From positions 16,932-80,931 of the forward strand of contig JAXDDP010000034.1 of the NCBI GenBank assembly GCA_034676785.1: 64,000 nucleotides of DNA, in the 5' to 3' direction. Of the stretch, positions 7,001 through 16,673 are shown piece by piece. A program made the position numbers and the translations under genes. This stretch comes from Anaerolineae bacterium (lineage in GTDB: Bacteria; Chloroflexota; Anaerolineae; B4-G1; SLSP01). A model generated the notes under the pieces. The model did not search any database. It had not been told where the DNA came from and saw only the letters and a program-made list of their open reading frames with translations. Numbering within the stretch: the first letter of the stretch is position 1; every line of letters begins with the position of its first letter.

Positions 7001-7029
7001 TTGACGCGGTCAACTAAATCTACTATAAT
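7001..7029 (+). promoter_or_regulatory. near-consensus sigma70 promoter of the glycan operon
   Basis: TTGACG (7001-7006), N17, TATAAT (7024-7029) in a locally AT-rich island. GGAGG at 7057-7061 precedes ATG 7069. Confidence 0.7.
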
Positions 7030-7068
7030 CTTCTTCAATATTTTCTAAAAGGATTCGGAGGTCAAACC

Positions 7069-7824
7069 ATGATAACGCGGCAGCGGCAGCTCGTGATCAT
7101 ACCAACGTACAATGAGGCGGATAACCTCCCACCACTGGTCGCGGCCATCTTGGCGCTCCAGGCTGACTTCCATATCCTCGTAGTCGACGACAACTCACCC
7201 GACGGCACCGGTATCATTGCTGATGGGCTTGCCCAATCCCATCCCGAGGTGCACGTGATGCACCGGCCTGCAAAACTCGGCTTGGGCCCGGCTTACATTG
7301 CAGGGTTCGAGTGGGCATTGGCGGAAGGGTACGATTACGTCTTCGAGATGGACTGCGACTTCTCCCATGATCCGATAGCCCTACCACGCTTTCTCTCGGA
7401 GATACAATCAGCTGACCTGGTCATCGGATCGCGCTACGTGAAGGGGGGAAGCACCCCTGACTGGACGGTCAAGCGTCGCCTGATCAGCCGTGGTGGCAAC
7501 CTGGTATCGCGGGCTCTCCTGAGGCTCAAGACCCACGACACGACGGGTGGCTTCCGCTGTTACCGTCGCGAGCTCCTGGAGCAGATCCCCTGGTACGAGA
7601 TCTGTGCTCGTGGCTACGGTTTCCAGGTTGCGTCCATCTTCTACGCCGAGCGGTTGGGGGCGCGGATCCAGGAATTTCCCATCACGTTCCAGGATCGACG
7701 CGTCGGGCAGTCGAAGATGTCTGCTGGAATCGTAAAGGAAGCGCTCACGTGCGTGATGGAGTTGGCTTTCTACGATCTCAAGAAGCGCCCCGTCGCTCAA
7801 GAGCCACGAGAGATTGCGCCCTGA
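7069..7824 (+). CDS. ppm1: polyprenol-phosphate mannose synthase (dolichyl-phosphate beta-D-mannosyltransferase-like GT2)
   Basis: IIPTYNEADNL, VVDDNSPDGT and a DCDFSHDP segment; about 250 aa, typical of the Ppm1/DPM1 family. Confidence 0.85.
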   Translation: MITRQRQLVIIPTYNEADNLPPLVAAILALQADFHILVVDDNSPDGTGIIADGLAQSHPEVHVMHRPAKLGLGPAYIAGFEWALAEGYDYVFEMDCDFSHDPIALPRFLSEIQSADLVIGSRYVKGGSTPDWTVKRRLISRGGNLVSRALLRLKTHDTTGGFRCYRRELLEQIPWYEICARGYGFQVASIFYAERLGARIQEFPITFQDRRVGQSKMSAGIVKEALTCVMELAFYDLKKRPVAQEPREIAP

Positions 7825-13900: not shown

Positions 13901-15468
13901 ATGGCGAGGGCGCCCCTTACATTACGCCCGACTTCCGTGCAGGGCGCGCTCAGGATCTGAACAGCCTGGGCGGCAAGATTCTGAGGATTGACCCGGATAC
14001 GGGCCTTGGTCTGCCCGACAACCCCTATTACGATGGAGATCCAGCCAGCAACCGCTCACGGGTATGGGCCTCAGGCCTGCGCAATCCTTTCCGCGTTGCG
14101 CTACATCCAACTGAGAACGTTCTGTATGTGGGTGATGTCGGCTGGTATGCGTGGGAGGAGATCAACTACGGGGGTAAGGGAACCAACTTCGGCTGGCCAT
14201 GCTATGAGGGTGGGGCCAGCGGCAACCTACGTCACTCGCTCTACAACACTTTCGCAGGCACCGCCACCTACTGTCAGCCGCTTTACGAGGCGGAGCCCAA
14301 CAGCGGCATCGAGCCGCCGCGCTATGCTTACCAGAACGTTGCAGGTGCTGCAGTCGTCGCGGGCGACTTCTACTCGGGCACCCGCTACCCGTCCCGATAC
14401 CAAGACACGCTCTTCATTGCCGACTATGACAAGCGCTCGATCAGCTATCTGACCGTCAACCAGGATGGCACCGCGATCGCGAGCCCCTTCTTGGAGGAGA
14501 TCTCGGCCCTGGGTGGTCCCGTGGACCTGCGGCTCGGCCCTGACGGATATCTCTACTATGTGGCAATGAACCCCGATCCCGGCGGCGAAAGCGAGATCCG
14601 GCGCATCGTGCACACCAGCGCGCCCGCAGTGGAAGTCAACGCCACACCTCGCTATGGGCTCGAAGTGCCGCTGCAGGTCCAGTTCACCAGCACCCTCTCA
14701 ATCGAGGATCCAGAGGGGCGGCTGAGTTACCACTGGGCCTTCGGCGATGGCGGCACATCGACCGAATCACACCCCCTTCACACTTACACGGCGGCAGGCA
14801 CCTATACGGCGGTGCTGACAGTCACTACGCTGCAGGGACAGTCAAGCGGCGACCGGCTTGCTGTGGTCGTTGGCGACGCCCCACCGATCGTCACCATCGT
14901 CCAACCAAAATCCGGCGACCTCTACACGATTGGCACACCGCTCAGCTTCAGTGGTGGCGCTGTCGATCCCAGAACAGGCCAACCTTTGCCTGCGACGGGC
15001 CTGCGCTGGCATGCACAGTGGTTCTTCAACGAGCATTTGCATTCACCATTCCTCAGCCTCGAGGGCATAGATAGCGGTAGCTTCATCGTTCCCAGCCACA
15101 ACGACAACACAACGATGGTCCTCTGTCTGACCGCAATCGACCACATCCCCGAATTGCTTGACCCGGCAGCATGCGTGGAGATACAACCACGGACCGTGCC
15201 CTATACCTTCCTGACCAAGCCAGCCAGTGGCTTGACCCTGGCATATGAGGGCATCGACTATACCACGCCCTTCACGATTGCTATGATGGTCGGCGCGCGC
15301 CGCAGTATCGGTGCGCCTGCGGAGCAAAATGGGATGCCCTTCGCTTTCTGGTCCAACGGTGGAACAAGAACCCATGAGATCATTGGGCAAACGACGCCCC
15401 AGACACTGACCGCAACATACGGGCACTTTGCATACCTGCCCCTCGTCATCCGGGGCGACAGGCAATGA
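10900..15468 (+). CDS. 1522-aa secreted multidomain protein: N-terminal anchor/signal, Ig-like domain, 11 Asp-box (BNR) repeats, PQQ-type soluble sugar dehydrogenase-like beta-propeller, PKD domain, C-terminal Ig-like region
   Basis: Eleven S/T-x-D-x-G-x-T/S-W boxes (TSDGGANW ... TIDGGTHW). sGDH motifs [54 protein letters not shown] motif WAFGDGGTS...[19 protein letters not shown] overlap with the upstream gene; an alternative GTG at 10930 follows GGGAGGAG. Confidence 0.8.
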
Positions 15469-16673
15469 TCCATCGCCCGGCTATCTGGCGGCTTTCCGTT
15501 TTCCTCCTGATCACGATTCTGTCTGCGTGTGGTCGAGGAGACCTGATGCCAATCCACCCCACGGTGACTCCATCAAGCACACCGTCGCCCACACCAACGG
15601 CAACACCCACGGCAACGCCGACCGCTACGGTGACACCCTCCGCCACCCCAACGCCTACGAGCACGCCGACACCAACCCAGACCCCAACGCCAACGATGAC
15701 GGCCACGCCGACGTACACGCCAACCCCGTCTCCAACACCAACGGCAACGCCGGCCCCGCGCCCGGCACGACCGCTGAACGCCGCAGGGACTGTAGGGTTA
15801 GGGGTCTACACCCAGGGCGTTCCCTATGACGGGTTCTCCTCGGTCTTTGCCTTCGAGCGGTTGGCACAACACCGCACAGCTTATGTACTCTGGTTCCAGG
15901 CCTGGGGTGATTCAGACAGCGCCTTCGCACGCGAACAGATCGCTGCCGCTCACAGCGCCGGTCTCACGCCGGTGATCACCTGGGAGCCCTGGCAACGCAA
16001 CTTCGCCAACCCAGTCGCCACCCAACCGGACTATACACTCCAGGCAATCGCGAGCGGAACAAGAGATGACTACATCAGGTCCTGGGCACGTGGCGCGCGC
16101 GATCTGAGAGGTCCGATCATCATCCGGTTTGCCCACGAGCAGAGCACGGAGCCAGGTGAACGCTCCTGGTATCCGTGGCAGGGTGATCCCGAGGGGTATC
16201 GAGCCGCTTTTCGCCACATAGTCGGCATCTTCCGGGATGAAGGCGCGAACAATGTCCAGTTCTTCTGGAGCGGGATGTGGTTGCACGAATGGGCATCAGC
16301 CTACTATCCGGGAGAGGATGTCGTCGACTGGGTCGGAACGACAGTCCTGAATCACGGCACTGACATCACAGAGGAATGGGCAGCCTGGCGCACCTTCGAT
16401 GACCTCTTCGAACGCCAATACCAGGCCGCATCCGCGTGGGGAAAACCAGTGATGGTCGTCGAAATGGGAAGCGCAGAGCAGGGTGGAGACAAGGCAACCT
16501 GGCTTCGAGATGCTTTCAGCTCGTTGCCGACCAAATACCCTCTCGTGAGAGCTCTGCTCCTCTTCGAAGTCACTTCGGATCGTGAGTGGCCCCATATCAA
16601 CTGGTCAGTAGGATCGAGCCCAGAGAGCCTGACGGCGTTCCGCGAGGCCATCCTGGATCCTTACTTCAGGTAG
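15465..16673 (+). CDS. lipoprotein with Thr/Pro-rich linker and clan GH-A (GH26-like) glycoside hydrolase domain
   Basis: Lipobox LSAC at residues 19-22. 68-aa TP linker. Candidate acid/base FAHEQ and nucleophile VVEMG motifs in a (beta/alpha)8-like pattern. ATGA overlap with the upstream gene. Confidence 0.7.
15561..15764 (+). repeat. coding low-complexity tract (imperfect ACN-CCN repeats encoding [11 protein letters not shown]...)
   Basis: Direct reading of the translation [68 protein letters not shown]. Confidence 0.85.

Follow-up and report, generated by a model that had tools for sequence, protein, structure and literature searches.

A candidate synthase-dependent beta-glycan system in an uncultured Anaerolineae bacterium that pairs a BcsA-like synthase with a GT-C glycosyltransferase

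Organization of the locus

A 64-kb stretch of DNA from an uncultured filamentous Anaerolineae (Chloroflexota) bacterium (hereafter the window; GC ~60%) carries a five-gene locus that may well direct the synthase-dependent production of an extracellular beta-glycan. A check of open reading frames (ORFs) places five tightly packed plus-strand genes at positions 7069-16673, behind a near-consensus promoter. Gene 1 (7069-7824) is predicted by Pfam and PDB matches to encode a soluble 251-aa GT2 enzyme, a polyprenyl-phosphate sugar synthase of the DPM1/Ppm1 type; gene 2 (7849-9351), by its PMT_2 match and a scan for transmembrane segments, a GT-C glycosyltransferase; and gene 3 (9353-10903), by PDB match and motifs, a BcsA-like GT2 synthase of a clade marked by the motif QRGTW and without a PilZ domain. 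Gene 4 (10900-15468, with a probable start at GTG 10930) specifies a 1522-aa membrane-anchored ectoprotein, assigned from Pfam, structural models and folds, and gene 5 (15465-16673), from Pfam and PDB matches, a lipoprotein with a Pro/Thr linker and a GH26 domain. A first-pass annotation, made from the letters of the sequence, had given the same five genes and the same domain make-up; the Pfam matches (Glycos_transf_2 in gene 1, PMT_2 in gene 2, Glyco_tranf_2_3 and Cellulose_synt in gene 3, Sortilin/BNR, GSDH and PKD in gene 4, Glyco_hydro_26 in gene 5) bear it out. The synthase and its neighbour genes were found, identical, on NCBI, Logan and ENA contigs.

The promoter proposed in that annotation, a sigma-70-like TTGACG-N17-TATAAT (7001-7029, plus strand), lies ~40 nt 5' of the first start codon and agrees with the consensus at 11 of 12 positions. 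It is predicted solely from this match, and was the top scorer of a 12-kb promoter scan that returned six sites against 3.6 expected from shuffles. The site falls in a 173-nt spacer between gene 1 and a divergent beta-helix gene (4106-6895, minus strand); at 46% GC against 60% for the window, the spacer is AT-rich, as had been noted. A cyclic di-GMP (c-di-GMP) riboswitch or a long leader is rejected, the predicted 5' untranslated region being only ~35 nt.

The intergenic gaps of 24 nt (genes 1 and 2) and 1 nt (genes 2 and 3) were both verified in the sequence. The GTG at 9353, where gene 3 starts, has an AGGAG Shine-Dalgarno sequence in front of it, and since genes 2 and 3 are only 1 nt apart, translational coupling between them is likely. 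The two ATGA overlaps that had been described (10900-10903 and 15465-15468) are both real in the sequence, but the first is probably not a junction: gene 4 more likely starts at GTG 10930, behind GGGAGGAG, which public gene calls chose over ATG 10900, and the gene 3/4 junction would then be a 26-nt gap with no overlap. For gene 5, ATG 15465 is better supported than the ATG 15546 of the gene callers because it gains a lipoprotein signal (LLITILSAC) that homologues share. Whichever starts hold, the packing of the five genes appears close enough for co-transcription.

The QRGTW synthase

The best PDB matches of gene 3 are BcsA structures (4hg6 and 5ej1; 4e-26), aligned over residues 67-438, which include the catalytic and transmembrane regions, at ~27% identity. 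Two N-terminal and at least three C-terminal transmembrane segments are seen in a hydropathy scan. The 12 aligned family members all carry DDGH, KAGNLN, DADD, FPCGSG, VED, KQRGTW and YRVTRK without variation. DDGH, DADD, VED and FPCGSG line up with BcsA motifs, placing in the protein the GT-A core Asp, DxD, (T)ED and an FFCGS-type finger; YRVTRK corresponds to the gating loop (FxVTxK type), and a C-terminal transmembrane channel region is present. The Q(Q/R)xRW motif is altered. It had been described as "QxxRW-type", but KQRGTW aligns with QQRGRW of BcsA such that the Gln and Trp are kept and the Arg is replaced by Thr; KQRGTWA is found in 71 of 78 family members. In BcsA, the Arg of QxxRW contacts the nucleotide diphosphate.

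No PilZ domain was detected in gene 3 with Pfam or NCBIfam, and the protein ends ~80 residues past the gating loop. Its score against the NCBIfam cellulose-synthase model is 160 bits, the cut-off being 699. For comparison with CslA, a 268-aa GlxA segment was rebuilt from a PDB alignment and led to Streptomycetaceae glxA and from there to a locus with cslA (L086). This locus contains LPMO (lytic polysaccharide monooxygenase), Band_7, cslA, glxA and GH6 genes, and its CslA has QQMRW, TED and DTDH. By BLASTP, gene 3 is 26% identical to this CslA over 129 aa (E 1e-5), so the gene 3 family is not orthologous to CslA. A tblastn search of a plasmid collection for actinobacterial cslA found only proteobacterial BcsA-like genes, at ~27% identity. 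Sequence comparison thus places gene 3 in a distinct synthase clade, outside CslA and closer to BcsA (~27% over near-full length).

The GT-C partner and the lipid-linked sugar

Gene 2 matches PMT_2 at 3e-12 (47.5 bits; cut-off 26.1). A hydropathy scan gives at least nine transmembrane segments and a ~150-aa C-terminal ectodomain. An acidic motif, FFDEG, follows directly after the first transmembrane segment, in the first outside loop, and its D41-E42 pair is at least 90% conserved among 54 homologues from two phyla; among 12 aligned sequences, all keep E42, 11 have Asp at position 41 and the remaining one has Glu there. About 30 further positions are invariant or nearly so across both phyla. 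No match to any solved GT-C structure, PMT/Pmt included, was found among PDB sequences. The enzyme would use a polyprenyl-phosphate sugar as donor.

Such a donor could be supplied by gene 1, which matches Glycos_transf_2 at 1e-33 and has no transmembrane segment. The top PDB match is the Dol-P-Man synthase (DPMS) of P. furiosus (5mlz, 2.5e-31), followed by ArnC and GtrB. The protein scores under all NCBIfam equivalog cut-offs, the best being PpgS (53 bits against 370). These matches indicate a polyprenyl-phosphate sugar synthase of the DPM1/Ppm1 type, and the sugar loaded is probably mannose. Only the closest relatives (L006, L009, L017, L111, L116) have gene 1 as part of the operon. Thermoleophilaceae loci have a different DPMS/ArnC-like GT2 gene directly 3' of the synthase, which we read as an independent recruitment of the same function.

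The ectoprotein and the hydrolase

Gene 4 begins with an N-terminal transmembrane segment, followed by a beta-sandwich, a GH74-like double propeller, a sugar dehydrogenase domain of the pyrroloquinoline quinone (PQQ) type, a PKD domain and two more beta-sandwiches. The full architecture is found in only ~15 protein clusters. The tandem seven-bladed BNR propellers (11377-13299, plus strand; residues ~160-800) were recognized as GH74-like from an AlphaFold2 model and from fold and profile searches. The model of residues 45-800 has a predicted local distance difference test (pLDDT) score of 90.4, and its top 25 PDB fold matches are all GH74 (E 2e-25, TM ~0.53); a profile search of the propeller region against the PDB gives GH74 at 7e-44. 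The GH74 fold handles beta-1,4-glucan backbones. The positions of the catalytic Asp residues of GH74 (YARTD and GDxG) read LYAVVGHP and ATGCSGGW by eye, a hint that the Asp pair has been lost; the hidden Markov model alignments were out of register between blades. The module is probably non-catalytic and glycan-binding, an assignment of low certainty.

The second half contains a six-bladed sGDH/GSDH domain with insertions, resembling PQQ-dependent aldose sugar dehydrogenases (13297-14604, plus strand; residues ~800-1235). The GSDH match is strong (1.6e-39, 136.6 bits; cut-off 25). PDB sequence matches are 2ism, 3a9g and 2g8s, and fold matches are to sGDH and AA12, with 2ism and 3a9g at TMt 0.69-0.75. 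A catalytic His (SHSIGD), a PQQ-contacting Arg (GLRNP) and the motif NFGWPCYEG are invariant in 16 homologues; the domain may bind PQQ and oxidise a sugar. The C-terminal region (14620-15465, plus strand; residues 1241-1522) consists of PKD (PKD_4, 7e-15) and a ~200-aa beta-sandwich region, modeled at pLDDT 70-90; a fold search with the last ~200 residues returned only generic immunoglobulin-like matches. A GSDH protein is encoded between synthase and hydrolase in eight loci (L014, L016, L021, L023, L051, L092, L093, L107); in several lineages the protein in this place combines GSDH and PKD and has no BNR half.

Gene 5 combines a lipoprotein signal (LSAC), a ~80-aa Pro/Thr linker and a GH26 catalytic domain. 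The Pfam match to Glyco_hydro_26 is weak (3.6e-6, 27 bits; cut-off 20.2), and in the PDB, endoglucanase H of C. thermocellum matches best, through its GH26 domain (CtLic26A, 1.8e-32), with GH26 mannanases and xylanases at 0.01-0.6. The catalytic residues E225 (HE) and E333 (EMG) align with the CtLic26A motifs and are invariant in 19 homologues. Both characterized members of the Lic26A clade are lichenases, one of which also cleaves xyloglucan (PMC7157769). The GH26 domain had been taken to imply a mannanase and a beta-mannan-like polymer; the gap between the CtLic26A match and the mannanase matches (0.01), together with the GH74-like propeller, speaks against this. In 17 loci of the Chloroflexota type, and in one from Pseudonocardiaceae, a GH26-like gene lies 3' of the synthase; the L020 locus has them fused.

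Other hydrolases occur beside the relatives. In many Thermoflexales/Ardenticatenia-type loci, a convergent gene just 3' of the GH26 gene specifies a protein of the GH113 family (1.5e-77) bearing a CBM30-like tail (L018, L021-L024, L026-L028, L032, L088, L092, L096, L099, L101, L103, L104, L125, L126; e.g. L024:12842-14515, minus strand), and L001 has a GH10 gene upstream. GH113 is a mannanase family, and these accessory hydrolases (GH113, GH10) are best known for acting on mannan or xylan.

Conservation of the GT-C and synthase pair

Relatives of the synthase number 260 among ~186,000 species-level genomes (one genome per species). The best 80 loci were mapped by tblastn with the window proteins and other recurrent neighbours. 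These 80 fall in two phyla: Chloroflexota (Anaerolineae, Thermoflexales, Ardenticatenia and Ktedonobacteria) and Actinomycetota, mainly Solirubrobacterales/Thermoleophilia but also Ilumatobacteraceae, Pseudonocardiaceae and Dactylosporangium. Carriers include the cultured Ktedonobacter racemifer DSM 44963 and Dictyobacter species (L036, L038, L042).

A GT-C gene lies directly 5' of the synthase, on the same strand, in ~57 of the 80 genome loci, including 30 of the 32 Chloroflexota loci with upstream sequence and 26 Actinomycetota loci. The reverse test, in which metagenome contigs were scanned with a GT-C alignment, found the synthase next 3' of the GT-C gene in 35 of the 37 GT-C relatives whose contigs extend far enough downstream. 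Each gene is thus near-obligately associated with the other, and such a linkage argues against gene 2 being a general protein-mannosylation enzyme. Fusions to the synthase were also found: with GH26 (L020:10001-12763, 920 aa), with C-terminal TPR repeats (P0113, 822 aa), and with a weak PMT_2-like membrane region that precedes the synthase in a single 1261-aa ORF (L063:7880-11665). The L020 contig carries the label "candidate division WWE3" but may be mis-binned, as identity between its genes and the Chloroflexota set is 48-56%.

The first-pass annotation had put forward the recurrence of the whole five-gene neighbourhood across related genomes as a check of the system. Near-universal recurrence holds for the GT-C and synthase pair only. 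The full five-gene set occurs only in the closest Anaerolineae relatives, as do the BNR fusion, gene 1 in the operon and the divergent beta-helix gene.

The gene order GlxA-like, GT-C, synthase is seen in 20 genome loci of Solirubrobacterales and in four additional loci from metagenomes. The oxidase has S. lividans GlxA as its best PDB match (4unm, 2.2e-67; fungal galactose oxidases ~1e-20), and the copper ligands (Cys, Tyr-His and His) align, which identifies it by sequence as a true GlxA homologue. An analogy with CslA-GlxA-CslZ, drawn earlier from the window, is strengthened by this adjacency of the same synthase family and a GlxA homologue. In at least 20 Solirubrobacterales loci (e.g. L048:4203-5762, minus strand), the gene divergent from the GlxA-like gene always encodes a secreted protein of ~520 aa that has a proline-rich region and matches nothing in Pfam; the actinobacterial version may include it as an additional component.

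Other recurrent neighbours were seen in parts of the family. A ~110-aa Cys-rich protein with no Pfam match, absent from the window, is encoded directly 3' of the GH26 gene in many Chloroflexota loci (L011-L015, L021-L023, L035, L088, L092, L107, L110; e.g. L015:3605-3940), often with a second GT-C gene next in line after it. GGDEF/EAL proteins of c-di-GMP turnover are encoded within a few kb of the synthase in ~11 Actinomycetota loci (e.g. L083:7125-8936), though the synthase is without PilZ; the GGDEF-EAL protein at L078:11655-15032 also carries, by fusion, an aromatic amino-acid lyase domain. A Pseudonocardiaceae metagenome-assembled genome (L076) has an NAD-dependent sugar epimerase/dehydratase gene (8825-9844, plus strand) directly 5' of the synthase and a GH26-like gene 3' of it, with no GT-C. 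The epimerase/dehydratase hints that the nucleotide-sugar donor is perhaps other than plain UDP-glucose in some lineages.

Neighbouring genes in the window

The divergent gene at 4106-6895 (minus strand) encodes a 929-aa right-handed beta-helix protein with a C-terminal transmembrane segment (Beta_helix 2.6e-11, DUF1565). Its only PDB match is a weak one to the GH120 xylosidase 3vst. It is kept divergent in L007, L008, L011, L017, L087, L089, L090, L111 and L116, and is possibly an accessory of the system in the closest clade only. Just past it are two tandem minus-strand genes for LysM and Peptidase_M23 proteins (1483-2598 and 2635-3873), predicted peptidoglycan endopeptidases. The pair could be wall-remodelling helpers like LpmP/CslZ of Streptomyces, or mere neighbours.

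The 3' flank has a thioredoxin gene (16586-17164, plus strand) with its own promoter-like site, followed by a ribosomal-protein/rpoA region. That second strong promoter-like site, TTGACA-16-GATAAT with an extended TG (16767-16794), lies ~95 nt past the operon stop; the stretch from gene 5 to this site showed no hairpin of the intrinsic-terminator type. A 494-aa fusion of TP_methylase (tetrapyrrole-methylase-like) and MazG nucleotide pyrophosphohydrolase is encoded at 17252-18736 (minus strand). Farther along, a second, larger GT-C gene (46203-48560, plus strand; 785 aa, PMT_2 2.5e-8) is followed by a major facilitator superfamily transporter gene (48640-49875, plus strand); GT-C paralogues are evidently numerous in the source genome. 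A mobile or horizontally acquired island was considered and rejected: GC is flat over the window and the flanks are housekeeping genes.

Proposed mechanism and alternatives

We favour, with somewhat better than even confidence, a synthase-dependent extracellular beta-glycan system whose product, most likely glucan-based, is modified by the GT-C enzyme, oxidised and trimmed. That the locus is a synthase-dependent one with a dedicated hydrolase and an extracytoplasmic oxidoreductase had been proposed in the first-pass annotation, and the domains and the relatives agree with it. Gene 3 would polymerise and translocate a beta-linked glycan, predicted to be glucan-based with beta-1,4 or mixed beta-1,3/1,4 linkages because of the BcsA similarity, the lichenase-type GH26 and the GH74-like module. 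Gene 2, presumed active, would move a sugar from a polyprenyl-phosphate carrier, on the outer side of the membrane, to one of two targets: the emerging chain, which would gain a side branch or a cap, or an acceptor that anchors the chain. In the window operon gene 1 would make that carrier-linked sugar. Gene 4, held by its one-helix anchor, would hold the glycan in its GH74-like cleft and oxidise it with its PQQ-type dehydrogenase domain, thus filling the same functional slot as the copper-radical GlxA beside the Solirubrobacterales synthases and Streptomyces CslA. Gene 5 may trim or release the polymer, as BcsZ and CslZ do.

Several points weigh against this reading. The polymer, the donor sugars and the acceptor of the GT-C enzyme are all deduced from sequence. 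With Thr in place of Arg in the QRGTW motif, the donor or catalytic details may differ from those of cellulose synthases. About 16 Actinomycetota loci have the synthase with no GT-C detectable in the tblastn maps. The GT-C-like half of the L063 fusion is without the DE motif, and the fusion is possibly an assembly or frameshift artefact, so it is used as supporting evidence only. Genes 1 and 4 are missing from most family loci, which makes these two dispensable accessories. Confidence in the GSDH model is low at the insertions (overall pLDDT 68), and the supply of PQQ is a further concern, no PQQ biosynthesis genes having been seen in the parts of the window examined. Finally, with GH113 and GH10 genes beside the locus in relatives, the backbone might contain mannose or xylose.

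The product might instead be plain cellulose, an unbranched beta-1,4-glucan, with the GT-C protein serving as a structural membrane partner in the manner of BcsB or the GlxA transmembrane anchor and transferring nothing. Gene 3 is closest to BcsA, CslA-GlxA yields cellulose in vitro (PMC11022532), the L063 fusion has lost its DE motif, and no polyprenyl-phosphate-sugar synthase gene is near most loci. A scaffold, however, would have no need of the DE motif and the many loop and transmembrane residues kept across two phyla, DPMS-like GT2 genes have been recruited to the locus in two separate lineages, and QRGTW separates the synthase from all cellulose synthases compared; we regard this explanation as unlikely. 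The locus may otherwise hold two functions, genes 1 and 2 being a Ppm1/Pmt-like system for O-glycosylation of Pro/Thr linkers in proteins such as gene 5, and genes 3-5 an independent synthase module. In Actinobacteria, Ppm1 and Pmt glycosylate such linkers; here the ~80-aa linker of gene 5, the PMT_2 and PMT Pfam matches and the closeness of gene 1 to Dol-P-Man synthase would fit. This too seems improbable, since the GT-C and synthase genes are adjacent even in loci without gene 5, a Pro/Thr-linker protein or gene 1 (Solirubrobacterales, Ktedonobacteria), the reverse test almost never finds the GT-C family without the synthase, and gene 2 shows no sequence match to solved PMT/Pmt structures.

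A beta-mannan or glucomannan, fed by polyprenyl-phosphate mannose and served by GH26 or GH113 as a dedicated mannanase, would account for the DPMS-like gene 1 and for the presence of two mostly mannanase families, the GH113-like gene (1.5e-77) being convergent downstream in many Chloroflexota loci. Gene 5, however, resembles CtLic26A (1.8e-32) far more than the GH26 mannanases (0.01), the GH74-like module indicates beta-1,4-glucan backbones, and the synthase is nearest to cellulose synthases, which leaves this product with a rather small chance. The GH74-like, GH26 and AA12-like folds are also typical of biomass degradation, as in a catabolic locus for plant beta-glucan or xyloglucan with the glycosyltransferases as unrelated neighbours. 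But the operon is without transporters or regulators, the hydrolase is fused to the synthase in L020, a glycoside hydrolase gene lies 3' of the synthase in at least 18 loci, and the GH74-like module apparently lacks the catalytic Asp pair; a catabolic role is very improbable.

Implications

Beyond the favoured system of synthesis, modification and trimming, a bolder proposal is put forward tentatively, as something we think may be so but would not expect. The GT-C enzyme and the QRGTW synthase would form an obligate two-enzyme membrane complex that builds the glycan from both sides at once, the backbone from nucleotide sugars in the cytoplasm and the branches, caps or anchoring link from polyprenyl-phosphate sugars outside; the non-homologous PQQ dehydrogenase of Chloroflexota and GlxA of Solirubrobacterales would carry out the same oxidation. 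If true, this would be an unrecognised sub-class of synthase-dependent pathway in monoderm-type Terrabacteria, and oxidation of the glycan, beyond scaffolding, would be the real job of GlxA-type partners.

To our knowledge, what is understood of synthase-dependent secretion comes almost entirely from Proteobacteria (Bcs, Pel, Pga, alginate) and one Streptomyces system. The distinct synthase clade seen here is nearly always joined to a GT-C enzyme. The gene combination had been called undescribed, and a literature search found no paper on it, no description of GT-C/synthase coupling and none of a PQQ-type dehydrogenase in the GlxA slot. If the GT-C enzyme modifies the nascent chain, the pair would provide a route to decorated beta-glucans in cells without an outer membrane, by a synthase and not by Wzy or ABC systems. 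The swap of PQQ dehydrogenase and GlxA beside one synthase family gives a comparative handle on the chemical role of GlxA in glucan deposition. Since Ktedonobacter racemifer DSM 44963 and Dictyobacter are cultured, the core pair can be tested by experiment. Anaerolineae are abundant in anaerobic digesters and activated sludge, and the system may bear on the formation of their sheaths, filaments and biofilm matrix.

Comparison with known systems

Genes 1 and 2 follow the two-gene logic of GtrB/GtrC, ArnC/ArnT, Ppm1/Pmt, the mycobacterial Mpt enzymes, PpgS/Rv3779 and CsbB/YfhO. In those pairs, a cytoplasm-facing GT2 enzyme loads polyprenyl phosphate and a multi-transmembrane GT-C enzyme with an Asp/Glu motif in its first loop transfers the sugar outside; their acceptor polymers are made by Wzy-, ABC- or cytoplasm-dependent routes. 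No such pair that we know of or could find is coupled genomically, and near-obligately, to a BcsA-like synthase. Among solved structures, gene 5 is closest to CtLic26A, and the two halves of gene 4 to the GH74 xyloglucanases and to the sGDH/AA12 PQQ sugar dehydrogenases, respectively. The window versions differ in being membrane- or lipid-anchored and inside a biosynthetic operon, and the GSDH domain has large insertions.

In Streptomyces, cslA-glxA-cslZ makes an apical beta-glucan, whose passage through the wall is aided by CslZ (GH6) and the LPMO LpmP (PMC11022532, PMC9040799). CslA and GlxA form an active complex via the N-terminal transmembrane helix of GlxA, and cellulose is made in vitro (PMC11022532). 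Both this system and the window encode a synthase resembling BcsA, a sugar oxidoreductase that is anchored in the membrane and faces away from the cytoplasm, and a glycoside hydrolase that is a lipoprotein; in both cases the host is filamentous and has no classical export pore in an outer membrane. Gene 4, like GlxA, has one N-terminal transmembrane segment. The window differs in having no GlxA, the place of which is taken by the PQQ-type GSDH domain fused to a GH74-like module; its hydrolase, in an analogous role, is GH26 whereas CslZ is GH6; LPMO and SPFH genes are lacking, and the GT-C and DPMS-like GT2 enzymes have no Streptomyces counterpart. With BcsA-BcsB-BcsZ it has in common the D, DxD, (T)ED and FxCGS motifs and gating loop of gene 3 and a dedicated endoglucanase. 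In contrast to that system, it has no BcsB, BcsC or PilZ, QRGTW stands for Q(Q/R)xRW, an Asp replaces the His after DxD, and the synthase has a GT-C partner. The window system thus functions like CslA-GlxA-CslZ or BcsA-BcsB-BcsZ, as far as its genes predict, and is a member of neither.

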